Origin: Azolla caroliniana
Taxonomy: Eukaryota; Plantae; Polypodiophyta
Length of the DNA: 64,000 nucleotides
Assembly: GCA_043228905.1 (NCBI GenBank)
Contig: JBHGNT010000009.1
Span: 2,914,001-2,978,000, forward strand
Direction: 5' to 3'
A program made the translations under genes and the position numbers. Positions within the stretch are counted from its first letter, which is position 1; each line of letters starts with the position of its first letter. The notes beneath the pieces are model-generated. The model did no database searches. It saw only the letters and a program-made list of their open reading frames with translations, and was not told the origin of the DNA. Below are positions 11,858-60,282 of the stretch, piece after piece.

Positions 11858-13121
11858 GTTTCACATTTTAGTTTTAGTATTCAATAATATTTTTGAATTA
11901 TCTTTTTGCTTTGATCCCCATTTCCTCCCTTTGTGTGAGTTCCATAGTAAGGCTTTCTAAAGGCAAGGAGGGATGGGCCTGAACATGTCGGGAGTATATG
12001 TCAGAGAGCTCATGTGTGAAAGGTATTGTGGTGCGATGACTTGGTTGACTAGAGTTGGTGATGTTGGAGATATCCCATTTTAGGTCAAAGTATAAGAAAC
12101 TATGGTCTGCACCAATAGGACATGGGGCCACCCGGAAGGAGTTAATCATGTGGCCCCATGTACTTCGGGGCATCCTATTAGATAATCAACTGTGCTTTCT
12201 GCTCCTCCATGTGTGAAACACGTGAGCTCTTCCGAGCATGGCCACTTGGCTAACCCATTATATATGACCATCCGGTGCCGACTACCAAGGACATGGGGCC
12301 ACTTGGAAGGAGTTAATCATGTGGCCCCATGTACTTCAGGGCATCCTATTAGATAATCAACTGTGCTTTCCGCTCCTCCATGTGTGAAACATGTGAGCTC
12401 TTCCGAGCATGGCCACTTGGCTAAACCATTATATATGACCATCCGGTGCTGACTACCAAGTTCGAGCAGATGATGGCCAAAACTTGTGGCATCTGCACCT
12501 TGATCTTTTGATCTACGTGTGGTGCCTATGTCTAAAGGATCGACATTTGCCATTTCTAGGTTTTTATCCATAGGAAATATTGTGCATTGTCGGGATTGGG
12601 TTCTCGCATTGAAATCTCCTACAAGGAAGACTTGTCATTGGGAAGAATATCAAATTATGTCATCCGATAGAGGTTCGTATGGAGAAGGCCTATGTGGCGC
12701 TCCTTCATCAACTAATCTCGCCTCTCTAGCCATATTATAACTTTCGGGGGAAAGTAACAAATGGCCAAAAATATTGCCTGATCCTTGCTAGTGAAGACTT
12801 TCACCCACATAAAACGAGCTTCTGGGTTTGTCCTTAGTATTTCTATCCTATTATGTAACGCTCTCCAAAACAATATTTAGACACCTCCAGATCCTCTGGT
12901 AGTGTGTCGATGTGTGGTTTGTCTAAATACGGACTCCCAACAAAATCCTTCGACTCGTGGGAGTCCTCTATTTGGGCTTTGGTGTGTTTCTGCCAAGGAA
13001 AGTATATCTGATGCCTTTAATATCTCCTCTTGGCGGCCGGGGTGTGTCCAGAGTGTGTCGTTACAATTCCATAAGGTCATCCTAAGTGTATTTTTTGTCA
13101 CATGGACCGCCCACCATCAAT
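11858..13121 (-). mobile_element. Second LINE: APE endonuclease part of ORF2, decayed, no RT downstream
   Basis: Motifs TLWNC, ILSLAETH, RGSGGV, FLVGDFNART, GHHLLEL..MVIYNG..LTCF..STVDYLI, GADH. Confidence 0.85.
12117..12460. repeat. 171-bp tandem duplication inside the endonuclease region
   Basis: AGGACATGGGGCCAC... at 12117 and 12288; the copies differ by a few substitutions. Confidence 0.9.
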
Positions 13122-15073: not shown

Positions 15074-15738
15074 TGTCGCGTTGTTAAGCGCGTGCGTGGA
15101 GAACAAGGCGGGACCACTGGGGTCTTGGACCGAGGAATAGGTGGGGAAAAGAGAGAGAGGGAGAGAGAGACACGCTCACACACGGATAGACAAAGAAGTG
15201 CGCGGGAACGTAGCCCAATCAACACAAGAGACACAAGTTGGGCAGGAGATAGAGTATAAAAACGCGTATATAAATATATGTATGCAGATGACTCGAACGG
15301 TTTCAGCCGACCTGGGTGTCGACGCCTGATCACCCACGCACACAGGAGAGCAAGATGGAGATCCTGCCGGAAGCACACGGGCGTTCCACGGAGCAGAATC
15401 AGCCTCTCGAGAACCTGCGCAAAGAAAGCTTATGGAGAATGACAGAGGAGAAGAGCTCGGTCCCAGTCCGACAACACTTCGTCCCCTCTAGCGCGCTTTC
15501 CCCTCTCTCCCCCCGTCTCCCTCTCCTTTATAGCTCAAGGAGGGAGGCCGTTTCACCTGTTTACATCACATTAATTCTCTGTCCGAAACTCCTTGATTTC
15601 CCTTATAGAATATTGCTACCTAGGATCTAACCTTTGTGCCTACCTATCTACCATACGACAAGGGACGTGCCCATGTGTAAGGGCTGGTTCACACACATAA
15701 CACACGGTTTGCGCCTGGGGACGGTTTTCTTCACAACA
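15074..15738 (-). repeat. 3' LTR of element C (665 bp)
   Basis: Direct repeat of 28404-29091 with several substitutions and two short indels. Confidence 0.95.
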
Positions 15739-15814
15739 TCCGCCCCCACCTAACCGCGCATCCACCGGTATGCGCCAAAATTGGGTTCCTACGGGAGAAA
15801 ACCGATCCTTGCTT

Positions 15815-16184
15815 TTATTCCTCGTTTACCGGTTCATCGTCTGCCTCGAGCTGCTCGTCGTCGCTGTCCATGCCCCCTAGCTCCGCCTCCCCGTCGTGTC
15901 GTTTCTTAAACGCTTTGATCCTCTTCCCCGCTACTGGTATCGCCATTCTCATACCGTCGAGCTCCGCGAGATGGTACGTCCCATTGGCGTTGGCTCCTGT
16001 TACTACGAAAGGCCCGAACCACCTCCTCGCAAACTTCCGCGTGGCCCTGTGCTGATTGTCGGGACTACTGTCGTAGACTAGCACCCAGTCGCTTTCCTTG
16101 ATCTTCCTTGGCCGGAGCCGGTGTGTTCGGTCGAATCGGGCTTTGTTCCTTATCCTCGCTACTCGAAGTTTCTCCGCGGCCCGT
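15815..16184 (-). pseudogene. Integrase C-terminal remnant of element C
   Basis: KFARRWFGPFVV...YHLAELDG matches the end of pol in element D; cut off from the rest by the D insertion. Confidence 0.9.
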
Positions 16185-16992
16185 TGTCAAGATATTACGC
16201 AAGTGCGTGTGGAATCGAGGCGGGACCGCGGGGGTCTCGAACCAAAGAGCAAGCGAGGGAGGAGAAAGAGAGAGTACCGGCTACGCAGGACCGGGGATAC
16301 ACGGGGACACGGCCCTTCAGCACGGAGAACGCGAACAGACACCGACACAGACAGATGCGAATGACTAAATATGTGTATTAACAAAAATGGCTAACACGAC
16401 TACAACCCTCGATGGGGCACAGGTTGGTTACAACCGAACAGGCCGGCGAACAGATGCCGATGCCTGTTCGCTTCGACGCACAAACGGGGGGGGGGGGGGG
16501 GGGTAGCAGGTCGGAGGTGCTGCCGGAAGCACTCGGGCGTTCCTCGAAACAGCGCGAGCCTCCTCGGAACCCTGCACAGAAAGCTATGGAGCTCAAGAAG
16601 GAAGGAAACAGAGAGAGAGAAGCGTCCAGAAACGGTCCGACAGCACTTCGTCCTCTCCGCTCGAGATGCCTACAACAGCTCTTCCCTCCTCTTTTTATAG
16701 CCCGACGAGCAGGCCGTTCTGTCAGCTTTATTCCCTGTCCCTTTTGGACAGGGATCGCTCCGTCCTTCACGCGTCCGCGTAGTTACGCCGCCGACTCGTA
16801 CGGTTCCTTCGCTCGCGCGCGCGACCGAAAAGACTGTTCGCGCGGTCTTTGTCTCCACTTGTGTTAGGGCCCGTTCCCGCCGATTATCCTCCTAATTCGC
16901 TTCTATGTACAACTTGGAGCTTGCGCGCGTGAAGAACCGGTTCCCACGCCTAGGTGCGCCGATTCCGCCTATGGACGGTTTTCTTCGCGACA
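16185..16992 (-). repeat. 3' LTR of element D (808 bp)
   Basis: Differs from 22714-23519 by G-tract length (18 vs 16) and two substitutions noticed by eye. Confidence 0.97.
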
Positions 16993-17063
16993 TCCGCCCC
17001 CACCTAACCGCGCATCCTCCGGTATGCGCCAAGAGAGTTGGGACGGAGAAAACCGGCCCGTCT

Positions 17064-20000
17064 TCATTCCTCGCCCGTCGGTTCTTCCTCGTTTCCGGAT
17101 CGTTCGTCACTGCTGACTAGGAGAGCCGGGTCCGGCTCGTCGTCATGTCGCTTCTTGAGCGCTTTGATCCGCTTCCCTGCAACCGGTATCGCCACTCTCG
17201 TGCCGTCAAGTTCCGCCAGGTGATATGTCCCGTTGTCATTGGCGCTCCGTACCACGTAAGGCCCGAACCACCTTCGTGCGAACTTCCATGTGGCTCGGTG
17301 CTGGTTGTCGAGGCTGCTGTCGTAGATGAGCACCCAGTCACCTTCTTCGATTTTCTTCGGTCGGAGCCGGTGCGTTCGGTCGAACCTGGCTTTGTTCTTT
17401 GTCCTCGCCACCCGGTGCTTCTCCGCAGCCAGTTCCACGTCCTCCGGCCTCCGCCCGAGTTGTCGTATACGCGCGGCCAACAACTCCTCCCGGCTCATCT
17501 CGTCCCTCCAGTCGACCGTTGCCCACGAGGAGATCGTCCGTTCCATCGGCATGATCGGCTTCTGGCCGAACATGAGCTCCGTCGGCATGTACCCGGTTAC
17601 CGAACTGTGCGTGGTCCGGTCTGCCCACAAAGCATACGGTAGCAGCCGCGGCCAGTCACCGACTCGGCCTCCGCATGCCCGGACCAACGCCTTGACGATC
17701 GGTCCGTGTCCGCGCTCCACCTTTCCATTCGCCTCCGGATTGTATGCAGTGGTGAGCGAGAGCTTGACTCCCAGCCGGTCGAACAGCTCCGCGGCTTCTT
17801 CGGCGTCCAACTCCCCTCGGTCAGCCACGATCTTCCCGACGCACCCGTACCGGCATATCACGTCCTCGATTAGGAACCGGCATACGGCCGCAGTCGTTTT
17901 GTTCGGAAGGGCCCGGCCTTCCACCTGGTTCGTCAGATCCTCCCGCGCTAGGACCAGGTACCGCATCTGTCCTACTCCCATTGGCATCGTTACCAGATCT
18001 ACCATCCATTTGAAATGGATGGCCGGAGGGTACGTAGGGTGAAGCTCGTCTCGATGTCGGACTATGGAGTGCATCTGGCAGCTCTCGCAAGTTGTCACGA
18101 ACCGATGCACGTCCTGGTACTGCCCCGGCCACCAATACTTCCCCTTCAGTTTCTCAAACGTAGCCCATGTTCCACGGTGTCCAGCCCAAGGGCTGTCGTG
18201 GTAGGCCGTCAGCAGCTCCTCCTGTTCTTCCTTCATCGCCACCACCCGGAGCGGAGCGCCGTCCCTCTTCTTCGGGTGCTTCCATAGATAGCCATCCCGG
18301 AGAAAGAACCGGTACGCTTTCTTCCGGATCCGGTTGGCCTCGTCCTTCGTCCATGACGCATCGGGCGTCATTGTCTTCAAAAACCCACCGATCTGCAGCC
18401 ACTCCCCGTCGTACTTGCTCGCGTCGAAGTCGTTAAGCGCCGGAGCGCTTGTTCCGTCGGTTGTTACATACGCAGTTTCGAAGAAGTCCACGCCGACCTC
18501 TTCGTCCTCCGAAACCATGCCGCCCTCGTCATCGAATCTCGCCCTTGAAAGCATGTCGGCCATGGCGTTGTCTTTCCCGGAAATGTGTCGTATTACCGGG
18601 TCTAGGGACTTGATGTACGCTATCCACCTGAGCATTGCCAGGTCCGGCGTCGCGCATCCGGAAACCATGCCGAGAATCGGCATGCAATCCGTCTCTATGA
18701 TTACCTCCGTCCCGATCAGATAGTCCTTGTCGGCCTTCACCGCCGAAACGATACCCCAGAGTTCGCGTTTAACCTGGGCGTATCCTCGCTGCCGTTCGCT
18801 GAGGACCTTCGCGCCGAATCGGATCGGAAACCGATTGCCGTCCTCGTCTTCTTGGTTGACGACCCACCCGATTCCGGTCGGACTCGTGTCAACCGTTATG
18901 TACACTGGGGTGCCCTTCCTGTAGACGGCCTTTCGGAGCGCCGGTGCTGCCGAAAGAGCCTCCTTCAGCTTCCGGACCGACTCCGTGTGCTTGTCTAGCC
19001 ATTCGAATCTTCGCCCTTTTCTCAATAATCCGTATAGCGGCTCCGCAACGTGGGCGTAATGCGGGATCCATATGTGGTAGAATGCGCATGCCCCCAGGAA
19101 TCTTCGTACTTCCGTGACCGAGCTGCAGTCGGGCTTCATCGCGGAGATGGCTTCTACCTTTGCCGGAGACGGTTTCCGGCCATATGGCCCACATAAGTGT
19201 CCGACCACCATGATTTCCGACTGCCCGAAGGCTGATTTCTCCCCCGAGAAGGTGAGCCTCGCATCCTCTAGCCTTTGCAGCACCTTCTCGCAGTCGTCGA
19301 TGTGCGCTGTCACGAATCGCCGGCATCCGTCCGGCCCGACCGTCTCGTCCTTCTCTTCTACCGGGCATCCCTTGATCGGGATGTCGTCCAGAAACGGCAT
19401 GGTGATGTCCGGGATGCAGTCCCTCAGCACCTTGTTCATTGCATTCACCATGTGGGCCACCGAGTTGGTCCCTCCTTGCGGCAGCGTACACATCCGCACT
19501 AGGCCGAGGGGAGTTCGCATCGTCGTAATGTCTCTGCTTTCCACGGCTAGCTGGAACTGGTCGTACCCTGAGTATAGATCACCGACCGAGTAAATCGACC
19601 TTCCGGCGAAGGCCTCCGCGAACTCGTCTATGGTCGGTCCGATCCCTGCGTTCCGAATGGTCACTCTATTGACCGGCTGCAGGTCCTGAATGAAGCGCAA
19701 TGATCCGTTTTTCTTTGGTACGGTAAACCAGCGGTTTGAATACGGGGCGCTCGACGGCTCGAGAATGCCCATATCAACTTTCTGCTTCAACAGCTCCATC
19801 AACTTCGGGATGTGAGCTCTCGGAACCGAAATTGGCTTGAGATTCCACGGTACATGAGGTACCGTGAATATCACCATCGGCTCTACGATCGTCGGGTCCA
19901 CGCACCCGATTTCCTCCGGCGAGAATGCGAAGGCTTTCCCGTGCCTTCCGAGCATTCTCCGGAACCGGTCTTCCTCCGCCGGCAGTAGGAACCCGCCCCC

Positions 20001-20546
20001 ACCTATCTTCAGCTCGCGGAGCGTCTCGTTGGTGAAGGTGTGTCCTATGCAGGCCGGATCCCGTAAGCTGGGGTCCGATGCAACCCCTTTGATTCGGGAT
20101 TCGCTGCCCTCCGGTAAGGGCGCCGCAACTGGCCTCACCTTCCGGTCCACAGTCTTGTACTTGGTGCTAACTCGGGCTGTCCGTTCCGACTCGAGCCCTC
20201 AACCGAAGTCCGCGATGACTTCGTACATTTCTTCGGAACATACCGGTATCGTCCGGTCCTCGATAAGGTCTTCTTCGACTACCCTCCCCAGCATTCCCAA
20301 GGTGTCGTCGAAGGAGACTGCCTCCACGGCTCCGTTGATTTCTTCGTCAGGGCCGAGAACTCCGCACGCCCGAAGTCTCCCCTCCGTCTTTGTTTTCTCT
20401 CGGCCGGCGATGCCGACCAACATACATGCTCCGCTGTCGGAGAAGCAAAATTTCCTACCTATTGTACACGGTTTTATCGTACAGATGTGGGGTTTTCCCG
20501 GAGCATCCGGACTGTCGCGACCCCACGCCTTGGCAGTCCTCTCTAA
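17064..20546 (-). CDS. pol: Pol (RT-RNase H-integrase) of element D, -1 frame relative to gag-pro; one in-frame TGA at 20199-20201
   Basis: RT: RFIQDLQPVN, GDLYSGYDQ, LPQGGTNS, PFLDD. RNase H: VDTSPTGIG, ELWG, IETDC, ADMLSR. Integrase: H..H..CESC, then D, D, E residues. No chromodomain seen. Confidence 0.93.
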
Positions 20547-20552
20547 AAATCC
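20487..20552 (-). promoter_or_regulatory. Predicted -1 ribosomal frameshift signal (G GAU UUU + pseudoknot), element D
   Basis: Heptamer at 20552-20546 just before the gag-pro TAG; 6-nt spacer; stem 1 GGACTG/CAGTCC; stem 2 GTGGGGT/ACCCCAC; -1 frame open downstream. Confidence 0.8.
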
Positions 20553-22669
20553 TCTCGGTTTTCGGAACCGAGGGAGTCGCGGTTACGTTCGTGGTTCGGC
20601 CGTACCGTCAGAAACTGGACCGAATGGCGCCCGTCTTGGCTTTTGACCCTCGCGTAGGCCGAACCGTTGTCCAACACCTTGGTCTCCATCCGCGCCGCCG
20701 TGATGTACGGCTCTCCCAGTATGACCGGATGCGAAGACGTCTCCTGCACGAAGAAGTGCTGGTCAATCTCGACGTCGCCGATCTTGACTCGCACATTCGG
20801 ACAGGCCCCGTGCAGCTCCTCGGTGGCGCGCGTTGCCGCCCTTATTTTCCACCCGTGCTTGGTGTTGATCGGCCATTTGCCCTTTTTATAGAAGTCCATG
20901 GACATCAAGTTGATCTCCGATCCGTGGTCCACCAAAGCTATCACCGGTTCCTGGACATCGCCGATCTTCACCGGGGTTTCCGTGGTCGCTCGGGCCCAGT
21001 GTGGTCTCGAATAGTGGCTTTCCGCCCACTCGTCTCCCAGCGCCATGTCGTCTAGGTGCGTCGTCCGCACTTCCACTGGTCTTTCCGGTTCTGTCTCTGT
21101 CAACAGCCTCTTCCGTTTCACCAAGTCCACGATGGAGTCGTGGAACTCCTTCTTGGCGATTCCCAGCACCTCTCGTAACGACAGCTCCACCTTGCTGTCG
21201 AGGATCCATTCCTCTAGGACCTTTCGTAAGTCCGTGGTCCTTTCTATCTCCGTCCCCAGACGGTACCCGCCCTTCTGGGGTTTATCTTTCGTACCGGCCC
21301 CGCCGGCTTCGTCCCGTCGTGGCCCGGACCGGGTCTCGTATCGTTGTGAGGGCCCGGTCATCCCGGGTTTCCCCACCCGCTTCTCTTCTACTAGAGCCTC
21401 GTAGTTCTGGCAAGCGGCTTCCACGAAGCCCGTCCTTTCCTCGACCGGGTCGCTCCACCCGGTTATCTCCCGTACCCGTTTCTCCGCGCGGTCCGATTCC
21501 TCCCCTTTAAGCCTCGCACCGGCAAGGCCTCCCAGCATCGTCGGCCAGAACCCGGCTTCGCTTTCCCTTCGGGCCTCGCCGCCCCCGACTCGAATGCCGG
21601 CCGACGCCGAGTAGTGGACGGTTTCCGCGTGTCGGGCCGCCGCCTCTTCCATCAACCTTTTCATACCACCTCGCCCGTCGTTTCGGCTCAGGGCCCTTCG
21701 GGTGTCGCTGTCATGCACTCGCCCTTCCCACAGGTACACCACCCTGTCCCTTAGCGCCTCCGCGAAGTCGCCGCAGTCCTTCCGAATGTGGCCGACTTCA
21801 TCGCACCACATGCACCTGTTTCCTGCCGCCGGCCGTCGGTCACGAGCCGGTTCGCCACCTTCCCTTCGGGCTTGCGCGATTTGGAGGTCCTTTACCGCCC
21901 TCGTCAATTCCTCCAGTGCCGCTCCTCCAGTCGAGCCTCTGACTACGCCGGTCGAAGCCGAACCGGTTTCCAACCACTCTCGGGTCTCTTCCTTTCGCAC
22001 CTGTGGCGCTGGTTCGAACTTCCTTGCTGCGACCGAGCCCGACCCGGTTACCCCGTTATCCGCCCATTCTCGCCGTTTGTCGAAACGGCCACAGACCTTC
22101 TTGACAGCCGCCCAGTCGGTAGTGAGCCCGTCTTCGGTTTCCAGCAAGAGGCCCACTTGCTCCCGATCCCGCTCGTCGACCGACTTGACAAACAGCAAGA
22201 CCCGGCTCGTGTCCAGGACGGTTCGGTCGAGCGCCGAAAGGCGCGCAAAGTTTTCCTCGAACTCCCGGAGGAGCGCCGACGCGTTTCTTCCCTTCCCCGG
22301 GGACTCCACCCATTCTATGAACCTTCGCTTCGAAAGCCGGAGCGCGTCGTCCAGCCCGTATTTCTCTAGGAGCCGACCTTCGAACTCCTCCCAGGTACGG
22401 CTCTCCGTCCGCACCTCGAACACCTCCGCATGGATGCTCGGCATCGCCACTCGGGGAAATCCGGCAAGACGCCTTTCTTCCGGAATGTCCCGCATCAGCA
22501 TCTCTGCACCGTAGGACGCCAAATACTTCGTGGCATCCTTCCCATCGAACCGGCCGATCGTGCCGACGACCGCCTCAATAGCTCTGTCGAGGGCACCGGT
22601 GCTCTCGCGCGCGTTTACAATCCGATCCACGGCCGAAGCCATGGCCTCTGCGAGATCCGACCCCCTCAT
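20543..22669 (-). CDS. gag: Gag-protease polyprotein of element D (~708 aa from ATG 22669)
   Basis: Uninterrupted ORF with CX2CX4HX4C knuckle (CMWCDEVGHIRKDC) and retropepsin-like ALVDHGSEINLM...VILGEPY. Confidence 0.93.
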   Translation of the reverse strand: MRGSDLAEAMASAVDRIVNARESTGALDRAIEAVVGTIGRFDGKDATKYLASYGAEMLMRDIPEERRLAGFPRVAMPSIHAEVFEVRTESRTWEEFEGRLLEKYGLDDALRLSKRRFIEWVESPGKGRNASALLREFEENFARLSALDRTVLDTSRVLLFVKSVDERDREQVGLLLETEDGLTTDWAAVKKVCGRFDKRREWADNGVTGSGSVAARKFEPAPQVRKEETREWLETGSASTGVVRGSTGGAALEELTRAVKDLQIAQARREGGEPARDRRPAAGNRCMWCDEVGHIRKDCGDFAEALRDRVVYLWEGRVHDSDTRRALSRNDGRGGMKRLMEEAAARHAETVHYSASAGIRVGGGEARRESEAGFWPTMLGGLAGARLKGEESDRAEKRVREITGWSDPVEERTGFVEAACQNYEALVEEKRVGKPGMTGPSQRYETRSGPRRDEAGGAGTKDKPQKGGYRLGTEIERTTDLRKVLEEWILDSKVELSLREVLGIAKKEFHDSIVDLVKRKRLLTETEPERPVEVRTTHLDDMALGDEWAESHYSRPHWARATTETPVKIGDVQEPVIALVDHGSEINLMSMDFYKKGKWPINTKHGWKIRAATRATEELHGACPNVRVKIGDVEIDQHFFVQETSSHPVILGEPYITAARMETKVLDNGSAYARVKSQDGRHSVQFLTVRPNHERNRDSLGSENREDF

Positions 22670-22691
22670 CTTCTGCTCTTCTGCCGCCTCT

Positions 22692-22709
22692 TTCACGTCG
22701 GGTTCACCA
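22692..22709 (-). promoter_or_regulatory. Primer binding site complementary to tRNA-Trp, element D
   Basis: Minus strand TGGTGAACCCGACGTGAA, 4 nt after the 5' LTR. The plus strand reads TTCACGTCGGGTTCACCA, the 3' end of plant cytosolic tRNA-Trp(CCA) as I recall it. Confidence 0.88.
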
Positions 22710-22713
22710 AATA

Positions 22714-23519
22714 TGTCAAGATATTACGCAAGTGCGTGTGGAATCGAGGCGGGACCGCGGGGGTCTCGAACCAAAGAGCAAGCGAGGGAGGAGAAAGAGA
22801 GAGTACCGGCTACGCAGGACCGGGGATACACGGGGACACGGCCCTTCAGCACGGAGAACGCGAACAGACACCGACACAGACAGATGCGAATGACTAAATA
22901 TGTGTATTAACAAAAATGGCTAACACGACTACAACCCTCGATGGGGCACAGGTTGGTTACAACCGAACAGGCCGGCGAACAGATGCCGATGCCTGTTCGC
23001 TTCGACGCACAAACGGGGGGGGGGGGGGGGTAGCAGGTCGGAGGTGCTGCCGGAAGCACTCGGGCGTTCCTCGAAACAGCGCGAGCCTCCTCGGAACCCT
23101 GCACAGAAAGCTATGGAGCTCAAGAAGGAAGGAAACAGAGAGAGAGAAGCGTCCAGAAACGGTCCGACAGCACTTCGTCCTCTCCGCCCGAGATGCCTGC
23201 AACAGCTCTTCCCTCCTCTTTTTATAGCCCGACGAGCAGGCCGTTCTGTCAGCTTTATTCCCTGTCCCTTTTGGACAGGGATCGCTCCGTCCTTCACGCG
23301 TCCGCGTAGTTACGCCGCCGACTCGTACGGTTCCTTCGCTCGCGCGCGCGACCGAAAAGACTGTTCGCGCGGTCTTTGTCTCCACTTGTGTTAGGGCCCG
23401 TTCCCGCCGATTATCCTCCTAATTCGCTTCTATGTACAACTTGGAGCTTGCGCGCGTGAAGAACCGGTTCCCACGCCTAGGTGCGCCGATTCCGCCTATG
23501 GACGGTTTTCTTCGCGACA
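22714..23519 (-). repeat. 5' LTR of element D (806 bp)
   Basis: TG..CA ends, adjacent to the PBS; TATA-like GCTATAAAAAG on the minus strand near 23220. Confidence 0.97.
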
Positions 23520-26237
23520 CCGTTTTACGTCCTCTGGCCTCCGCTCAAGCTGTCGAATCCGCGTCGCCAACAGGTCCTCCCAGCTCATCTCGTCCCTCCA
23601 GTCCACCGTGGCCCACGAGGAGATCGTTCGCTCTGTTGGCATGATCGGCTTCTGTCCGAACATCAGCTCGGCCGGCATGAACCCGATTACCGAACTGTGC
23701 GTAGTCCGGTCCGCCCACAAGGCATAAGGTAGCAGCCGTGGCCAGTCCCCGACTCGGCCTCCACACGCCCGTACTAGCGCTTTGACAATTGGCCCGTGCC
23801 CGCACTCCACCATCCCGTTCGCCTCCGGATTGTACGTTGTGGTGAGCGAAAGTTTGACTCCTAGTCGGTCGAACAGCTCTTCGACCTCTTCTGCGTCCAA
23901 CTCACCACGGTCAGCCACGATCTTCCCTACGCACCCGTATTGGCATACTACGTCCTCAATAAAAAACCGGCACACGACTGCCGTCGTCTTGTTCTGCAGG
24001 GCTTGGCCTTCAACCTGGTTCGTTAGATCTTCCCGAGCCAGCACCAGATACCGCATCTGCCCTACCCCCATTGGCATCGTCACCAAATCCACCATCCACT
24101 TGAAGTGGACAGTTGGAGGGTAGGTCGGGTGAAGCTCGTCCCGGTGTCAGATCATGGAGTGCACCTGGCAGCTTTCACAAGTCGTCACGAACCGATGGAC
24201 GTCCCGGTATAGTCCTGGCCACCAGTACTTCCCCTTTAGCTTTTCGAACGTGGCCCACGTTCCACGGTGTCCAGCCCACGGGCTATCGTGGTACGCCGCC
24301 AACAAATCCTCCTGTTCCCCCTTCTTCGCCACCACTCGGAGCGGGATGTCGTTCCTCTTCTTTGGGTGCTTCCAGATGTGTCCGTCCCGGAGAAAGAATC
24401 GGTAGGCTTTCTTCCGAATCCGGTTGGCCTCGTCCGTTGTCCATGCCGCTTCCGGTGTCATTGTTTTCAGGAACCCGCCGATCTGCAGCCACTCCCCGTC
24501 GTACTTGCTCTCGTCGAAGTCGTTAAGCGTTGGAGAGCATTCCCCGTTGGTTGTCACGTAAGCCGCCTCGAAGAAGTCCACGCCGACTTCCTCGTCCTCT
24601 GAAACCATGCTGCCGTCGTTTTCGAACCTCGCCCTTGAAAGCATGTCGGCCATGGCGTTGTCTTTCCCGGAAATGTGTCGTATTTCCGGATTCAGGGACT
24701 TGATGTACGCTATCCACCTGAGCATTGTCAGGTCCGGCGTCGTGCAACCGAAAACCATGCCAAGAATTGGCAGGCAGTCCGTCTCGATAATTACCTCTGC
24801 CCCGATCAGGTAGTCTTTGTCGGCCTTTACCGCCGAAACGATACCCCAGAGCTCGCGTTTAACCTGGGCGTATCCTCGTTGTCGCTCGCTGAGGACCTTC
24901 GCGCCGAACCGGATCGGGGAACGCATGCCGTCCTCGTCCTCCTGGTTGACGACCCATCCGATCCCGGTCGGACTCGTGTCTACCGTTACGTAAATTGGAG
25001 TGCTCTTTCCGTAGACAGCCTTTCGGAGCGCCGGAGCCGCAACAAGTGCTTCCTTCATCTTCCGGACAGACTCTGTATGCTCGTCTCTCCACTCGAATCT
25101 TCGCCCCTTTTTCAGCAACCCGTATAACGGCTCCGTGACGTGAGCGTAATGCGGGATCCATATGTGGTAGAACGTGCACGCTCCCAAGAACCTCCGAACC
25201 TCCGTGACCGAGCTGCAGTCGTTCTTCATCGCAGTGATGGCTTCTACCTTAGCCGGAGACGGTTTCCGGCCGTATGGCCCGCATAGGTGTCCGACGACCT
25301 CCGCGAACTCGTCTATTGTCGGTCTGATTCCTGCGTTTCGAATGGTCACCTTGTTGACCGGCTGCAAGTCTTGAATAAAGCGCAGCGTGCCGTCCTTCTT
25401 CGGCACGGTAAACCACCGATTCGAGTATGGGGCACTCGACGGTTCGAGGATTCCCATCTCGACCTTCTGCTTTAACAGCTCCATTAGCTTTGGGATGTGA
25501 GCTCTGGGTACTGGAATCGGTTTGAGACTCCACGGTACATGCGGTACCGTGAATATCACCATCGGTTCCACGACTGTCGGGTCTACGCACCCGATCTCCT
25601 CCGGTGAGAATGAGAAAGCCTTTCCATGCCTTCCGAGCATTTCCCGAAAACGGTTCTCTTCCGCTAGCAGTAGGAAGCCGCCCCCACCGATTTTGAGCTC
25701 CCGCAGCATTATGTCGGTGAACGTGTGTCCTATGCGGGCCGGATTTCGTAAACTCGGGTCCGACGCAACCCCTTTTATTCGCAACTCGCTGCCCTCCGGC
25801 AAGGGAGCCGTGACTGGCCTCACCTTCCGGTCCACAGTCTTGTACCTCGTCTCCACCCGGGCCGTCCGATCCGACTCGAGCCCTCTACTGAAGTCGGCGA
25901 TGACTTCGTACATCCTTTCCGAACATACCGGAATCGTCTGGTCCTCTTTAAGGACTCCTCCGACTACCTCTCGTAGCTCCCCCAAGGTATCGTCGAAAGA
26001 GACCGCCTCCACGGCTCCGTTGATTTCCTCTCCAAGGTCGAGGATACCACATGCCCGAAGTCGCTCCTCTGCCCTTTTCTTCTTCCGTCCAACAACGTCG
26101 ACTATCGTACACCCTCCGTTGTCGGAGAACCAAAATTTCCTACTTATAGTACAGGTCTTCTCCGCTATCGTACATTTGTGGGGTTTTCCCGGAGTGTCCG
26201 GACTATCGCGGCCCCACGCCTTGATAGTCCTCTCTAA
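23520..26237 (-). pseudogene. pol: Pol of element C: RT core deleted, premature TGA at 24147-24149, interrupted by D
   Basis: Colinear with D pol but joins PTIDEFAE directly to VVGHLCGPY (junction 25298/25299). HSMI*HRDE stands where D has HSIVRHRDE. Confidence 0.92.
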
Positions 26238-26243
26238 AAATCC
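26178..26243 (-). promoter_or_regulatory. Predicted -1 ribosomal frameshift signal, element C
   Basis: GGATTTT TAGAGA GGACTATC..GTGGGG..GATAGTCC..CCCCAC; -1 frame open into the 26012 ORF. Confidence 0.8.
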
Positions 26244-28360
26244 TCTCGGCTTTCGCCCCCGAGGGTCTCGCGGTTCCGCTCATGGTTCGGTCTCACCGTC
26301 AGGAACTGGACCAAGTGACGCCCATCCTGGCTCTTGACCCTTGCATAGGCCGAGCCGTTGTCCAACACCTTGGTCTCCATTCGTGCTGCCGTGATGTACG
26401 GTTCTCCGAGTATAACCGGATGTGAGGACGTCTCCTGCACGAAGAAGTGTTGCTCAATCTCGACATCGCCGATCTTTACTCGTACGTTCGGGCAGGCTCC
26501 ATGCAGTTCCTCGGTGGCACGCGTTGCCGCCCGTATTTTCCACCCGTGCTTGGTGTTGATCGGCCATTTCCCCTTCTTATAGAAGTCCATGGACATCAAA
26601 TTGATTTCTGAACCGTGGTCTACCAACGCCACCACCGGTTCATGAACATCTCCGATCTTCACGGGGGTCTCCGTGGTCGCTCTAGCCCAGTGCGACCTCG
26701 AATAGTGGCTCTCCACCAACTCGTCTTCCAGCGCCATGTCCTCTATGTGCATCGTCCGCACCTCCACCGGCTTTTCCGATTCTGTCTCCGTCGACAGCCT
26801 CTTCCTCTTCACCAAGTCTACGATGGAGTCGTGGAACTCCTTCTTGGCGATCCCGAGCACTTCCCTCAGCGATAGCTCCACCTTGCTGTCGAGGATTCGT
26901 TCTTCCAGGACCTTTCGCAGGTCCGTGGATCTTTCGATTTCTGTGCCCAGCCGGTACCCGCCCTTCTTGGGATTATCCTAGGCGCCAGATGCACCGGCCT
27001 CATTCCGTCTTTGCCCGAATCGAGTTTCATATCGCTGCGAGGGCCCGGCCCCTCCGGTTTTCCCTATTCGCTTGTCCTCCACCAGAGCCTCGTAGTTTTG
27101 ACAAGCGGCTTCGACGAAGCTCGTCTTTTCTTCCACCGGGTCACTCCACCCGGTTACCTCCCGGACCCGTTTTTCCGCGCGGTCTACCTCTTCTTTCCTC
27201 AGTCGTGCGCCGGCGAGGCCTTCCAACATCGTCGGCCAGAACCCGGCTTTGTTCATCTTCGGGGCCTCGCCACCTCCGACTCGAATACCAGCTGACGCCG
27301 AGTAGTGGACGGTCTCCGCGTGACGAGCCGCCGCCTCCTTCATCAGCCTTTTCATACCCCCTTGCCCGACGTTCAGGTTCAGGGCCCTTCGAGTCTCGCT
27401 GGCGTGCATCTGACTGTTCCACAGGTACACCACGTTGCTTCTCATCGCCTCGGCGAAGTCCCCGCAGTCCTTCCAGATGTGCCCAACTGCGTCACACCAC
27501 ATGCACCTGTTTTCAGCCAGAGGTCGTCGGTCACGGGCCTGTTCGCCACCATCCCTCCGTGCCTGGGCGATCTGGAGATCCTTTACCATCCGCGTCAGCT
27601 CCTCCAGAGCCGCTCCCCCGGACGAGCCATTGACCATGCCGGTTGAAGCCGACCCGGTCTCGAGCCAATCTCGGGTCTCTTCCCTTCGCGTTGGTGGTGT
27701 TGGCTCGAGCTTCCTTGCTGCGACAGAGCCCGTCCCTGTCGATCCTTTGTCAGCCCATTCCCGCCGTTTGTCGAAACGGCCACAAACCCTTTTCACTACG
27801 GCCCAATCGGCCGTCAGCCCGTCATCAGCCTCCAATAGGAGGCCTACCTGCTCCCGATCCCGCTCGTCAACCGACTTAACAAACAATAGGACACGGCTTG
27901 TGTCCAGAACGGTCCGGTCAAGCATCGAGAGGCGCGCGAAGCGTTCCTCAAACTCCCGAAGGAGCATTGATGCGTTCCTTCCTTTGTCGAGGGTCTCCAC
28001 CCACTCCATGAAGTCCCGCTTCGAAAGTCGAAGCGCATCTTCAAGCCCGTATCTTTCGAGGAGCCGACCTTCGAACTCCTCCCAAGTTGGGCTCTCGGCC
28101 CGTACCTCGAGCACCTCCGTATGGATACCCGGCATCGCCACTCGAGGGAATCCGGCTAGACGCCTCTCTTTCGAAATGTCCCTCATTACCATCTCAGCCC
28201 GGTAGGACGCCAAGTAGCTCGTGGCATCCTTCCCACTAAACCGGCCGATCGTACCGACAACCGCTTCGATAGCCCTATCAAGGGTGTTGGTGCCTTCGCG
28301 AGCACTCACTATACGGTTCACAGCCGAAGCCATGGCTTCTGCGAGGTCCGATCCCCTCAT
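26234..28360 (-). pseudogene. gag: Gag-protease of element C with one premature TAG (26978-26980)
   Basis: ORFs 26978-28360 and 26234-26881 share a frame and align with D gag-pro; CMWCDAVGHIWKDC knuckle; ALVDHGSEINLM. Confidence 0.92.
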
Positions 28361-28381
28361 CTTCTACTCCTCTGCCGCCTG

Positions 28382-28399
28382 TTCACGTCGGGTTCACCA
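28382..28399 (-). promoter_or_regulatory. tRNA-Trp primer binding site, element C
   Basis: Same 18-mer as in D, again 4 nt from the LTR. Confidence 0.88.
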
Positions 28400-28403
28400 A
28401 AGA

Positions 28404-29091
28404 TGTCGCGTTGTTACGCGCGTGCATGGAGAACAAGGCGGGACCACTGGGGTCTTGGACCGAGGAATAGGTGGGGAAAAGAGAGAGAGGGAGAGAGAGA
28501 CACGCTCACACACAGATAGACAAAGAAGCACGCGGGAACGTAGCCCAATCAACACAAGAGACACAAGTTGGGCAGGAGATAGAGTATAAGAACGTGTATA
28601 TAAATATATTTATGCAAATGACTCAAACGGTTACAGCCGATTAGGTCGGCGAGACGGGTGTCGACGCCTGATCACCCACGCACACAGGAGAGCAAGATGG
28701 AGATCCTACCGGAAGCACACGGGCGTTCCACGGAGCAGAATCAGCCTCTCGAGAACCTGCGCAAAGAAAGCTTATGGAGAACGACAGTGGAGAAGAGCTC
28801 GGTCCAAGTCCGACAGCACTTCGTCCCCTCTAGCGCGCTTTCCCCTCTCTCCCCCCGTCTCCCTCTCCTTTATAGCTCAAGGAGGGAGGCCGTTTCACCT
28901 GTTTACATCACATTAATTCTCTGTCCTTTCGGGCAGAGATACTCCTCGATTTCCCTTATAGAATATTGCTACCTAGGATCTAACCTTTGTGCCTACCTAT
29001 CTACCATACGACAAGGGACGTGCCCACGTGTAAGGGCTGGTTCACACACATAACACACGGTTTGCGCTTGGGGACGGTTTTCTTCACGACA
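28404..29091 (-). repeat. 5' LTR of element C (688 bp)
   Basis: TG..CA ends, followed by TSD ACGT at 29092-29095. Confidence 0.95.
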
Positions 29092-39300: not shown

Positions 39301-42300
39301 TAACGCATGATTATTAGATGAAAGCTTGTCTCAAGATGTATATTAATAATGCAGGTTTAGGTAGATATGTTCAAGGTAGTTGGAAGAGACTTTTGCTAAC
39401 CTGGCCCACTAAAGATGCAATGCATGCTCCGGTATGTACAAGGGGACCTTCTTTGCCAAGTGCCAATCCTCCTCCAACAGACCCAATGCTACCAAAAATC
39501 TGGATGTTTGGAGAGAACACTTTCACAAAAATAGACAACAAAAGGTAAAGCCATATTCATTTAGCTGGGATTGAAATTATCATTACTACCTTCCCAACAA
39601 GTGTCCTGAACAGTAAAATTCCTGGGGTGTCTATTCCTGGCAGTTGCAGACATCGAGGGGTAAATGTCTGAGATCTTGAAAATAGTTTATTTCTAGTGAA
39701 AATGAGCTTACCATTTAGATACCCTTTGATTTCTGGAATTCCAGAACCAGCTGCCGCTGGCGCATATTGCGTGACAATATAGACAGAAGAGAACACTAAT
39801 GCACCATTGAAAATCACATACACAAGAAACCCAGCAAAATAAGAATGCTGCATGATGGTAAAAGTTGCAGAAAACTTCCATCCAGAGAAGTTCTCCACCG
39901 CAATATTTATAAAGAAGGCTGAAAATCCTGTCGCTGCATAATAACAGTAGAAATTAACCTTCAGTGCATATTGGATGACATCCAGCAGATTCTTCATATT
40001 ATTCAAGCACTAAGGCAAATTCAACATCAATATATTGGATGAAAATCAGGCATAACATTTATCTAAGCTTTCAAATTGAACAGTGTAATTTCCCAAAAAC
40101 CAGGAGGGAAAATATATAGATAGATAAACACTGATCACTGTCTGAATAAATGGGTCCACTACAGTTGCTTGTAAGAAATTATAATTTTCACGTTAAGAAA
40201 AAATACAAAGAAAATGTAACCTAGTTTATAAAACAAAAGATCTGATCATGTATGTAAAGAAACTATCAAAGGATACTGTTGGTAACCAATCACAAATGGT
40301 GTAGACAACAAAAAATAGGTTTTTCTGATTAGAAATTAGAACAGAGGGAGAAAAAGGGATTATGCAAGTAAAAAACTTCAATAATCCGCATTACTGGCCA
40401 TTTGTAACGAATCTGCAAAAGATTGATGAAAGGAAAATCATATTGACACACATGTCAGTAGTTGCTATATATACACATTCACCTCACAAGTATTCGTTGG
40501 CTCCTTTACTCTCACTTACAAAGAGTTCTTTCTGAGGGACTGACATGAGCAAGAATGAGCAGTGTCCATTAAAAGAATAGTCTCTCACAATTGAATTTCT
40601 TTAAGGGAGAGCAACCAATGGAAGAAGATGATCAATTCAGTGTGCTCAAATTCCATTAGCAGCATCTCTAGAGCTAAATTAGAACACTTCACACTCCATT
40701 AAATATACTTTCAGTTTACCCCATTAGAATACTTAATCTGTTCCATAGTTTCACATGGTAACTAGATCTTACCAATTTCCAAATCGCCAATGAGAGGGAA
40801 CATGAAAGCAATATTTATAATACAAACAAAATCACTCATTAACAAAAATGAAAAGTTGATTGAGTAGCAAAAGAAGACTTACCGACACCAATCATAAGAA
40901 CAAAGATCCACTTGAGCGACACATACGATACATAGTGGAATTTCCCCCTGGAAGCCTGATACATAAAACGAGATGATATGAGTGCTGAACAAGAAAGAAC
41001 ATTGCAGAAACCTAAACAGTGAGATGGATGAAAAAGTATTTAAAGATCCAGTGACTCGAGAGGTGAAAGTTTTGAGATTGAAATACAATATCAAAGTATC
41101 AGATTGGGTATTATTTACCTGTATCTCCCAATAGGGGAGGGGTGGATTAAATGCAAAATCAAAATGTATAGATTAGGTCTTTAACTCTCCTTGAGATAGA
41201 CTGGAATGTAAGATCAAAGTAAAGGATTGGTATTACTTGCTACTCATAACAAGAAAGGATCAGATCAAGATGAAAGAAAATAAGTATGGCCATTGGGTCA
41301 TTCGCTTCTGCTTGTCGAAGTAAAGGAATTACGTTCTACCCGTTCCTCGCAATCAGGCAAGATCAAACATATGGGAATGGGGTTTTTGTCTTCTTCCCTC
41401 AATAGAGCGAAGATTGGAACCAAAATGTAAGAACTGGGTATTCACATGCCTTTCATGATCGGCGAGAATCAGATTGAAGTACAATATCAATATATTGAAT
41501 GTGGTCTTTACCAACTTCACCTGCTCCTTGAAGAATTTGATTGAAATACGAGATCAAAAATACTAGAACAAGTCTTCCCCCAAATATGGACAGGAATTAG
41601 ATTGAAATACAATACGATATATAGAAATTTGGTATTCATCCGCTTCTTACGATAGGCAAGAATTGGATAGAAATACAATATCAAACTATTCATCTTTACA
41701 TTCTTCTCCTGATAAGGCAAGAATTAGGTCAGAAATAGATTATCAAGTATAGGAGTTAGGTATCCTCATGCTTTGAGATAGTAAAAAATGGATTGAGGTA
41801 CGAGATCAAAATACTCAAATGGGATCAAGATTAAAATATAGGAATAGTGTCTTTACCTTCTTGTGCACGGTGAGATTCCGCAATTGAACTGAAATGTAAG
41901 ATCGAATATAATCTAGGGCTTGGTTAATCATGTAGTGAAATTTGCTAATATGCCAATACAACTATGAGAATCTATCAAAAGATTATCCAGTTTTTCCTCA
42001 AAATTACCAAACCCCGCATTAAACGCAATTAATACCACATTAGCAGAATTAAGCTATTAAAGAATTGCTACATCTTCTCAAATCAGTGCAATTTAACATG
42101 AATGGATCATTATCTCCTTCAAAGTATGAATAAGAAAAGAAACATAATTAGCCTGTATTTTGTTTGTTTTTATGCTACTTTTGTTCATGATGAATGGTTA
42201 ATTGTATTTTTTGACTAATAATTAGTCCCTGCAAGAACTAGCAACGCATTAATGGCCACTCAAATACATTAATATGGTTCTAATTAGGTTTGTGAAAGTG

Positions 42301-49807: not shown

Positions 49808-50121
49808 CGATGTCGGCAAACCTTCTCAAGTGGATTTTGGAACATTTGGAGCCTCAACGGATTCATTTCGAGAAAGCTCCTTGCATATTTTCATTCAATC
49901 TCATTGCTAGTCTACACATTCTTAAGGGTATCGGGTCTATATTGGCTTGAAGTCAACAACCCCACGATGTCGGCAAACCTTCTCAAGTGGATTTTGGAAC
50001 ATTTGGAGCCTCAACGGATTCATTTCGAGAAAGCTCCTTGCATATTTTCATTCAATCTCATTGCTAGTCTACACATTCTTAAGGGTATCGGGTCTATATT
50101 GGCTTGAAGTCAACAACCCCA
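49808..50121. repeat. 157-bp near-perfect tandem duplication
   Basis: CGATGTCGGCAAACC at 49808 and 49965; the same peptide appears twice in the ORF track. Confidence 0.93.
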
Positions 50122-51658: not shown

Positions 51659-53930
51659 TCAATGTTGCCTTTGAGAAGCATGTGTCATGTTATTGTCATG
51701 CGTGTATGGTGTTGATGCTGAATGCGATGGTTTTCTAGCTTTATGAATACCAGCTCTATTATTGTTGCTATTATTATTATGCTCTTTTGAGGAGGTTTGT
51801 GCATCATTTAAACTAGTTTCATATTGCCCCACTTTTGCAACATTTCCACCAACATTGAGGCTTCTTTGATCATGGTTATTAACTGCATTCCGTGCATATG
51901 GAGTCTTTTGAGCTTCCTGCTTATATGTAGAAGGGATTATGTTGATATGTTGTTCATTTGAGACCATAGGTTGTCCAATAGAGTACACATTTGAACTTCC
52001 TTGATTGTTACTTCTATTAGCTACATCAATAGTTCCATTTGAATATGCCACTTTCCTTATAGCGGCCACTTGCAAGTTGTATGCTATCCCAAGACCAATT
52101 GTGGTAAAGGCAAGCAAAGCTGCTCCCGTGAACACTCCAGATTTCAATATAAAGCATCCACTAGAGAGATTATCGGATGCGTCATGCCGATCATTGATGC
52201 CAGCACCCGCAAAAAGGAGAAGAAATGCAATTGAAAATGTGATCCTACATTAGGATAATCAACATGACATTTTAAATAGGATAGATAACTGTTCTTGCTA
52301 GGTGAAAAAACACTACATGGCCCTAGTTTTTTTGATATTAACCATAAAATCCCTTTATTTTGACAACATTTCAAGAATATCCTAATGTATTTATACAAGT
52401 TTAGTAAACTGGAGAATCCCAAAACGCTATTAAGTTTGGAACCCAAAGTTGTTTTCTAATTTTTTGTAAATATCGTGCTTTTTATCATCGAATCATTGGA
52501 CTCAATAGAGAATTGAGATTTTGAAACCATAACATGTTAGATTTTTATCCTTTTTCTTTACCATGAGATGACTAAGAAGCTAACTGCGAGAACAGTAGAG
52601 GAGTTCTTCATTGAAGGATTATTAGGTATAGGTTCACAGCAAATACAACCTCCCAACACATTAGACATCATTTGAGCTATGAGTAGTGAAATGGCTGACA
52701 ATACTCCAAGAACTAATGCCGGACTCTTTGGATGCACGCATTCGGTCAACGACAATTTCGTGATGTCACTTTCCTGGAAAACAAAGTTGAGTTCTTATAG
52801 GGTAAAACAATATGAAACCTAATGGATGCACTTTATATAAATGTCAAAGAAAAACAATGTCATCATCATTTGCCATGTCCTAAGGTCATTAAGATGACAC
52901 ATCGTTTTATAGAAAGATATTTTAGCTTGTCAAAAGCAATGTAGAGCATAGTTTCCTCTAAGGGGAAATTATGTTATGGAAACCAATAACTTCATAGGAC
53001 GTTATGAGCCCTAATTTTCCATAGACACACAACATGCACCTCATTTCTGGCGTCCAGGGTCAGGTCATCAAGATGACACACTATTTCATAGAAAGATGTT
53101 GTAACATGGTTAAAAGGGAATGTATCAAATAATTTCATCTCAGATGAATTTATGTATAACTTCATCCATTGTTAGAAACCCTGATTTGCCACAGAAACAC
53201 AGTGGCACTGTCATTTCTAGTGTCCTAAGGTCGTACAAACAAGACAATGGCACCATCATTTCTAGTGTCCTAGGGTCGCCAAAATGATACATTGTTTCAT
53301 AGAATGATGTTGTAACGTGATCAAAAGGGAATGAAACATATAATTATTTGTCAAACATTATGTTGTTAATTCATATTTATGTGAATCCTCTTCTTCTACC
53401 AAAGAAACAGAGTTGTGTGGCACCATCATTTCCCATGTCATAGGTCCATCAAGGTGATGGATGATGAACTGTTGCATAGAAAGATGTTGTAACATGGCCA
53501 AGAAACTAAGATGGAATGTAGGCCACAATTTCCTCTCCAGAACTGTCACACACACATGATTTCATCCATAAATTTATGCGGCTTCTTTTTTCTTCTTCTT
53601 CGCCTTCTTCTTCTTCTTACAAGAAACAAATCCACATCAAATTTCTTTCCATGCCCTACGGTCGTCGAGCTTCTTCTCATGAACACAAACAAGAACATAC
53701 AAACCCTGAATATTATTTACTAATCAGAAGGTCCCTCTTTTAATTGAGTGGAGAAACTCGGGCAAAAGATAATGTGTCACAATCCGCTGGATGAATAAAA
53801 AAAAAGAGTGAATAGTATAAAGAAAGAAGGTGAATACCGTGAGCTTTTTCGCCTCTGCGATGAGGGCGAGGAGGCCTGAGAGGAATCCGAGAAAAGCGAC
53901 GGAAGACAAGAGGACGATCCGTGTCTCCAT
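51659..53930 (-). CDS. DUF1218-family four-TM plant protein (MWL/VCC/DEAL-like), ~296 aa; exons 53930-53838, 52773-52562, 52244-51659
   Basis: LLALIAEAKK, CVHPKSPALVLG, GGCICC, ISW|ITFSIAFLLL.AGA, CFILKSGVFTGAA are typical of DUF1218. GT-AG introns keep frame. Long Asn/Gln-rich tail. Confidence 0.9.
52850..53540. repeat. Diverged tandem repeats in DUF1218 intron 1
   Basis: About four copies of CATTT..TGTCCTAAGGTC...GATGACAC...TTTCATAGAAAGATGTTGTAAC. Confidence 0.75.
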
Positions 53931-59745: not shown

Positions 59746-60282
59746 ATGGCCGCCTCCAAGGCTCATTTGACCTTCAATTCAACTGCGTACAACCGCAGAG
59801 ACTCATTTGGCCTTGGCTGGGCTGATCAGTGGGACTACAAATTCAACGATGAGAAGCTCATGAAATCCAGCTCTCACAGTTCATGCAATAAAGTGGCCAA
59901 TCCATCATCATTATCATCATCATCATCATCATCAACAGCAGGAGCAGAAGCAACAGGAACTGGATTGTTTAAATCAAAACTCGGTATTGGAAACATCGGA
60001 GCCAAGTCTTTGTCATCATCGTCATCATCATCGGCACTGTTGCGCCCCGCGAAATTCGGTAAAGAAAACAGGTCCTCAAATTCTTCATCTTCATCATCTT
60101 CATCATTGGTTCATAAGAGTCCCCTTGGTAGCAGCAAGAAGCTAGCAGACATCAACAAGAAGGTCACATCGGCCGCCAATTCGAGTGCCCACAAGGTGAA
60201 GTCCAGCACTCACATGGGCATCAAATGGCTCAAGAAGCAATGCTCCCTTAAGACCTTGAAATCATCGGATCATTCATCTTAA
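59746..60282 (+). CDS. Uncharacterised small plant protein, 178 aa, single exon
   Basis: Good start context (CAAATGG), N-terminal FGLGWADQWD motif, Ser-rich linker, basic C-terminal KVK...GIKWLKKQC. Resembles a widespread plant family of unknown function. Confidence 0.85.
   Translation: MAASKAHLTFNSTAYNRRDSFGLGWADQWDYKFNDEKLMKSSSHSSCNKVANPSSLSSSSSSSTAGAEATGTGLFKSKLGIGNIGAKSLSSSSSSSALLRPAKFGKENRSSNSSSSSSSSLVHKSPLGSSKKLADINKKVTSAANSSAHKVKSSTHMGIKWLKKQCSLKTLKSSDHSS

Follow-up and report, generated by a model that had tools for sequence, protein, structure and literature searches.

A predicted -1 frameshift signal located after the protease in Phygy-like Ty3/gypsy retrotransposons of Azolla caroliniana

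In Rous sarcoma virus, the protease is encoded in gag and frameshifting is stimulated by a pseudoknot, whereas the mammalian gene PEG10 shifts upstream of its protease, and the umbraviruses, dianthoviruses and insect flaviviruses employ downstream stimulators of another kind. The Rous sarcoma virus shift is a -1 shift into pol (PMC5009743, excerpt; this source, like PMC5580714, PMC4937337 and PMC3458567 below, is cited from partial text), as proposed here for a fern retrotransposon, although the slip site of this retrovirus is unrelated and no common origin of the two signals has been demonstrated. PEG10 and PNMA3 likewise combine gypsy ancestry with a heptamer and a pseudoknot, but both are domesticated mammalian genes and PNMA3 is without a Pol domain (PMC5009743, excerpt). 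Shift sites of the G_GA type function in plant and insect viruses: the umbra- and dianthoviruses use the same G_GAU_UUU heptamer that is considered below, the umbravirus site also having a nearby stop that matters for shifting, and insect flaviviruses use G_GA sites, all of these differing from the present elements in being RNA viruses (PMC5009743, excerpt). The usual spacer for -1 frameshift signals is 5-9 nt (PMC5009743, excerpt).

Plant retrotransposons, by comparison, are said to have, for the most part, a single ORF and no translational recoding (PMC5580714, excerpt), and a 2003 survey found separate frames in just two types of plant element, +1 in both cases (PMC5009743, excerpt). The lineage table of PMC6317226 lists an overlap of GAG-PROT with pol for no plant lineage. 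Ogre and Retand, of the plant Tat clade, resemble the elements described here in placing the protease in ORF1 with Gag, apart from RT-RH-INT, but Ogre relies on a spliced intron and Retand on a single in-frame stop, and neither is listed with an overlap (PMC6317226); they also possess an extra RNase H and 5-bp target-site duplications (TSDs), unlike the present elements. Tcn1 and Selgy do have two overlapping frames, but their overlap lies between GAG and PROT rather than after the protease (PMC6317226). Finally, Phygy, a non-chromovirus Ty3/gypsy lineage of Physcomitrium in REXdb, has its polyprotein organisation listed as "ND" (PMC6317226).

The window analysed here is the whole 64,000-nt stretch of Azolla caroliniana contig JBHGNT010000009.1 (positions 2,914,001 to 2,978,000), and it holds two nested elements, of which D has inserted into the integrase of the older element C (Table 1). 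The hallmarks of Ty3/gypsy elements are present, namely an LTR pair with TG...CA ends, a TSD, a primer binding site (PBS) and a polypurine tract, and the domain order is GAG-PROT-RT-RH-INT. The 808-bp LTR pair of D is 99.5% alike, and matching host tRNA-Trp genes for its primer site were found in 4/4 scanned loci. In both copies the protease was called by its DHG motif, the Pfam protease families matching C below threshold (E 0.007). D and C are separate subfamilies, 86% alike at the junction. D carries a premature stop in the pol frame that is missing in 10/10 full-length D-family copies, and C has stops in both gag and integrase, a deletion of ~400 nt in RT and the D insertion itself; full Pol cannot be made from either copy.

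The D and C elements appear to be Phygy-like, matching that lineage in their 4-bp NCGN TSDs, a tRNA-Trp PBS, the absence of a chromodomain and a coding region that fills the interior (PMC6317226), as well as in their nearest named homologues, which are Physcomitrium proteins. The window TSDs are CCGT and ACGT, and NCGN was found in 9/10 D-family copies, the tenth having an imprecise LTR end. Searches with Pfam returned no chromodomain or extra-ORF match in the pol of D or in that of a sister family (see below). The D family measures 7.2-7.3 kb and the sister family 7.7-8.0 kb, Phygy being listed at 7.7-10 kb; other named relatives come from Riccia and Adiantum.

Table 1. Features of elements D and C, and one example from the sister family. 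Coordinates are window positions unless another locus is given.
Feature	Position	Strand	Basis or remark
Element D, Phygy-like Ty3/gypsy LTR retrotransposon	16185..23519	-	TSD CCGT; LTR pair, ends
D 5' LTR	22714..23519	-	LTR pair and ends
D 3' LTR	16185..16992	-	LTR pair and ends
D primer binding site	22693..22709	-	complementary to 3' end of host tRNA-Trp(CCA)
D ORF1: Gag (CCHC knuckle, DUF4100) and aspartic protease (DHG motif)	20543..22669	-	ends REDF-stop
D junction cassette, whole	20552-20487	-	slip site, stop, two interleaved stems
D slippery heptamer G GAU UUU	20546..20552	-	sequence
D ORF1 stop UAG	20543..20545	-	first half of 6-nt spacer
D predicted pseudoknot stem 1, 5' arm	20532..20539	-	covariation
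D predicted pseudoknot stem 2, 5' arm	20521..20526	-	controls
D predicted pseudoknot stem 1, 3' arm	20509..20516	-	covariation
D predicted pseudoknot stem 2, 3' arm	20487..20492	-	controls
D start of pol frame: ~117-codon linker, slip site to RT	20202..20552	-	-1 frame
D premature stop, pol frame	20199..20201	-	private to copy D
D remaining pol: RT, RNase H, integrase	17064..20198	-	domain search
Element C, older, host of D	15074..29091	-	TSD ACGT
C LTRs	15074-15738, 28404-29091	-	93% alike
C primer binding site (tRNA-Trp)	28383..28399	-	sequence
C ORF1	26234..28363	-	ends REDF-stop; broken by in-frame stop 26978-26980
C junction cassette	26178..26243	-	slip site 26237-26243, stop 26234-26236
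C predicted stem 1	26223-26230/26200-26207	-	C cassette
C predicted stem 2	26212-26217/26178-26183	-	C cassette
C pol	23520..26243	-	-1 frame; cut by D, remainder near 15709-16184
Sister-family example	L326:4037-4100 (G000:C8, near 1484840)		AG GUU UUU cassette

Several further observations concern the window and the rest of the genome. The leader of D is very short, the first gag AUG lying ~25 nt 3' of the PBS (window 22669-22709), and the pol-frame linker (window 20202-20480, minus strand) encodes a ~95-residue domain ahead of RT that has no Pfam match and whose conserved motifs are EAVSFDDTLGE-like and VIPVNSIDMYE-like. Outside the elements, two-copy tandem duplications occur at 12117-12460 (171 bp, 96%) and 49808-50121 (157 bp, 100%), and Pfam matches mark host gene exons at 39560-40009 (CLC chloride channel, weak), 51662-52249 (DUF1218) and 59707-60279 (DUF3511, weak). 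At G000:C8:17796786-17823371, C16:4989495-5105657 and C5:10105608-10112201, tRNA-Trp-like 3' ends also occur in dense clusters, in part at intervals of ~1.2 kb or 0.87 kb; these are possible tandem tRNA arrays.

The original prediction for this locus held that gag and protease form one ORF with RT-RH-INT in the -1 frame, and that a G GAU UUU heptamer, a 6-nt spacer and two interleaved stems follow the protease, with a G-C pair of stem 1 swapped for A-U between the two copies. Both the layout and the cassette were found in D and in C, and the swap is real; the transframe peptide, given earlier as RED(F/L)LERT, is here predicted to be REDFLERT. The G GAU UUY sequence is an in-frame heptamer of the X XXY YYZ type with a G_GA deviation of the accepted kind, situated inside the ORF overlap, and the structure 6 nt downstream is a predicted pseudoknot that is backed by covariation. 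Stem 1 comprises 8 bp in C and 7/8 pairs in D, and the 6-bp stem 2 crosses it. Both strands of the window together contain 27 GGAUUUY sites, and only those of D and C are accompanied by a stop and at least 7/8 stem-1 pairs, the remaining 25 having 0-6 such pairs. No curated frameshift family of Rfam matched the cassette, the only hit being a chance sRNA match (E 6.8). The nested minimum-free-energy fold includes stem 1 in C (z -1.8 to -2.8) and lacks it in D (z +0.27), favouring stem 2 and a competing hairpin in the latter, and such single-sequence folding, which yields nested folds only, is uninformative for the knot. By themselves, D and C are weak evidence for it. Two broken copies, one of which folds no better than its shuffles, are what might be expected from chance or decay, with the frame offset as a mutation common to dead copies and the stems as accidents.

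A wider set of junctions speaks to this last reading. Loci were gathered from the window's own genome (175 best-scoring matches, a non-random sample) and from metagenomes (80 of 126), and 214 of the 255 were kept once duplicates, loci at contig ends and those with an incomplete protease match had been removed; the copies are related, so that the junction counts given here are not independent. RT was seen at 195 junctions and lies in the -1 frame at 170 of these; over the linker, that frame is open in 137/154. Two patterns that the original prediction had named as telling against it, gag-pro-pol in one frame and a motif missing from most members, were not encountered: ORF1 ran into RT in 0/214 junctions, and GGAUUUY stands immediately 5' of the first stop in 186/214. 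Clustering at 90% divides the 214 junctions into 33 groups, whose protease DNA is as little as 51% alike, and the -1 offset is common to about 25 subfamilies, the ORF1/pol overlap ranging over 13-124 nt. The offset is also found in young, intact copies, both long ORFs being unbroken in 7/10 full-length D-family copies; the LTR pairs of these ten are 98.6-99.9% alike, and the D/C family is young. Together with the stem-1 covariation and stem-2 controls described below, this breadth argues against chance or decay, a reading that we judge to have practically no probability and to be already refuted by the comparative sequence data.

The spelling of the junction is similarly constrained. ORF1 ends in D-F at 192 junctions, 186 of which are spelled G GAU UUY, as against 52% GAU among Asp codons elsewhere in ORF1, and all three stops, UAG, UAA and UGA, are used. 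Among rows chosen because they contain the site, the codon before it has a final G whichever of 8 amino acids it encodes; this choice of rows is also why printed probabilities for the G and GAU letters were set aside. Across the genome, one junction pattern gave 1765 exact matches and its reversed control 0, the former being a lower bound because the pattern leaves out the D-type spelling. At the protein level, DF closes 56/76 ORF1 homologues and lies no more than 12 residues from the end in another 18, the sister-family protein P0044 being included in this tally; gene models of Physcomitrium, Riccia and Adiantum also end ORF1 at or just after D-F. Among more distant proteins, 30/72 end at or near DF, and many gene models run on.

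Some relatives were noted in their own right. A second group of ORF1 proteins (P0074-P0130, from ENA, JGI and Logan contigs, some of which reach 1 Mb) is 800-900 residues long and also DF-ending. In L230:925-1010, Physcomitrium and Adiantum, the ORF1 stop falls 5-6 codons past DF, inside stem 1, giving ends such as DFGEVPL, DFHRMPL and DFLGVPL. At G000:C20:9726719-9739790, three matches of one related element lie 6185 bp apart, a likely tandem array of LTR retrotransposons.

The alignment of many family members that had been proposed as a check on the knot was made ungapped, from 25 intact representatives and both window copies (27 junctions), and stem-1 covariation was found in it. Of the 216 cells in the 8 pairs of stem 1, 207 are paired, with two-sided changes at 6/8 pairs; 0/500 shuffles reach the observed value on any measure, slid registers pair only 19-39%, and RNAalifold predicts the stem unaided. 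Stem 2, whose register differs from family to family by at most a few bases, was scored per sequence, because MAFFT opened no gap in loop 3. Its mean score is 16.0, vs 11.8 when the 3' segment is shuffled and 11.5 after synonymous recoding, with 0/2000 controls reaching the observed score, and when partners are swapped between families only 1/20000 does so. Stem 2 has only 4-5 bp in 7/27 rows, and its covariation rests on few families because most arms are a G-run facing a C-run. Both stems are rebuilt from other letters in L236 and L230, and the stop of L230 lies 6 codons further on, with slip site and knot unmoved.

The region downstream of the ORF1 stop bears on two further explanations. 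Synonymous divergence dips at the cassette (pS 0.18 vs 0.35-0.58). Across the linker, frame 0 contains 3-14 stops in 25/25 representatives, and the -1 frame has a dN/dS of 0.47, a sign of purifying selection, with no conserved AUG near the linker start. The linker, to judge from its sequence, is translated. A role for splicing, in which an intron spanning the ORF1 stop would be removed from some transcripts and the conserved letters would be splice signals, has a precedent in plants in Ogre (PMC6317226). In its favour, UUUUUAG resembles a splice acceptor, an AG is present in the 3' arm of stem 1 in 20/23 representatives, and some Physcomitrium and Riccia gene models splice at the junction. Yet the stop is UAA or UGA in 76/187 tallied junctions, which removes the acceptor AG, no GU donor is conserved in the ORF1 tail, and the linker is open in the -1 frame over its full length and under selection there, being coding and overlapping where the intron of Ogre is noncoding; nor does pol follow in the same frame behind a single stop, as in Retand. 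Spliced pro-pol RNA, the third outcome named against the original prediction, was looked for among 670 polyA reads from three runs, and no splice joint was found, a weak test given reads of low depth, from both strands and mostly 90-95% alike. In several gene models of Riccia and Physcomitrium the protease is joined to pol, at points that vary and with predicted acceptors that differ from model to model; these bridging models look like predicted introns spanning a frameshift, although some may reflect real splicing. Splicing is disfavoured, then, because many junctions lack the stop AG, a conserved donor is missing and the reads show no joint, and we consider it very improbable.

A slighter possibility still is that ribosomes reinitiate, or initiate internally, past the ORF1 stop, with the hairpin serving in packaging or reverse transcription. 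The constant position of the stop would suit reinitiation, and a stable stem 1 could serve another role, but the first AUG of the pol frame ranges from codon 3 to codon 111 among the 25 representatives, the residues upstream of it are conserved, and neither the fixed heptamer nor the fixed 6-nt spacer is explained.

Programmed -1 frameshifting in these Phygy-like gypsy elements, driven by a conserved signal that follows the protease instead of gag, is very probably the correct reading, and the comparative data back the position that had been claimed for it. From the layout, conservation, covariation and -1-frame selection observed, we infer pausing and slippage in the following manner. Most ribosomes would read Gag-protease and terminate just past Asp-Phe. 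The H-type pseudoknot, 6 nt downstream, would stall a minority of them, which would move back by one base through tandem slippage on G GAU UUU, this heptamer having been cited as a working site in umbra- and dianthoviruses, in agreement with PMC5009743 (excerpt). Reading would then resume as ...REDFLERT... through the ~117-residue linker into RT-RNase H-integrase, giving a minority Gag-PR-linker-RT-RH-IN product. Because only a minority would slip, protease would be made at the level of Gag, and RT/IN at the frameshift rate.

A divergent sister family in the same genome appears to have taken a different course. Its ORF1 ends QVFD-stop, and its cassette consists of CAG GUU UUU, a 5-nt spacer and a predicted 10-bp stem 1 and 7-bp stem 2. 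A stop closes the -1 frame after two codons; pol occupies the -2/+1 frame, starting R-F-L-T-R-T, homologous to G-F-L-E-R-T. A pattern search located the family at 59 distinct places, with the short spacer in all, and 20 stretches were sampled, 19 of them anchored. Among these 19, a 1154-codon pol is unbroken in 13 and both ORFs are unbroken in 10 (one of the 10 with an altered slip site); RG GUU UUU, a long -2 ORF and an immediate -1 stop occur together in 17/19 copies, plus variants. The family is young, with LTR pairs at least 99.4% alike in 14/17, and its pol is under selection and has been translated, to judge from a pN/pS of 0.09 (13 vs 42) for variants common to several copies. Relatives at 94% and 78% identity end QVFD and QVFY, and in one outside contig all four cassette changes sit in loops.

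We think it probable, on these comparisons, that the sister-family pol is reached by a -2 shift: the knot would be kept, and a spacer shorter by one base together with AG GUU UUU would lead to a -2 slip. The closest parallel is the -2/-1 site of arterivirus nsp2TF (GG_GUU_UUU), which the sister family resembles in its AG GUU UUU, its -1 stop just downstream and its long -2 ORF, although the arteriviruses use a protein complex on a C-rich motif ~10 nt away and the sister family a predicted pseudoknot at 5 nt (PMC4937337, excerpt); no CCCANCUCC stimulator of the protein-bound kind was found ~10 nt downstream in the sister family. A +1 shift, or splicing to an UUUUUGACUAG acceptor-like site, would be an alternative for this family only. 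It draws on the fact that +1 and -2 lead to one frame, on the poor P-site re-pairing that would follow a -2 slip (GUU to AGG), on the resemblance of the sequence to a 3' splice site and on RNA reads, none of which spanned this junction. Besides the match to the arterivirus site, it is opposed by the shorter spacer, since spacers 1-2 nt shorter favour -2 shifts with pseudoknots in vitro (PMC3458567, excerpt), and by the product, a -2 shift giving F-L-T-R-T in agreement with the F-L-x-R-T/A of most -1 families where +1 drops a residue. We regard this alternative as unlikely, though far less so than those discussed for the main junction. The tree of the families has no root and weak support; a change from -1 to -2, rather than the reverse, is suggested by the majority state alone.

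The sister family has also given rise to a deletion derivative of ~3.4-4 kb (L354, L356 and L357, also L286-L288 and L290), which keeps the LTRs, PBS and gag-protease but lacks everything between a point ~20 nt 5' of the slip site and the vicinity of the polypurine tract. From its sequence it would be a non-autonomous, gag-pro-only element. Its use as a negative control was dropped, the site having been lost through plain deletion.

A literature search, with subscription papers and theses outside its coverage, found no description of this signal, nor did the accessible portions of PMC12786077, PMC7466625, PMC5580714 and PMC11963269 contain one. The class of mechanism is textbook; its place after the protease, its lineage and the -1/-2 switch appear to be new. 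The original prediction regarded the whole scheme as undescribed in plants, and this stands for an overlap with slippery site and pseudoknot after the protease, the part not found described, but not for the placing of protease in ORF1, which Ogre and Retand share.

We lean towards the view that a lineage spanning mosses, liverworts and ferns makes its RT/IN through a pseudoknot-dependent -1 shift positioned after the protease, and that one recently active family has been converted to -2. A concrete mechanism is thereby offered for a lineage whose ORF layout was left "ND" in REXdb, and the signal suggests why gene predictors put introns in these elements. Roughly 25 natural variants of one pseudoknot are also supplied. 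Finally, the -1/-2 family pair is a natural test of the in vitro spacer result (PMC3458567, excerpt) and, if the reading is true, would be a natural test of the spacer-tension model within a plant genome.
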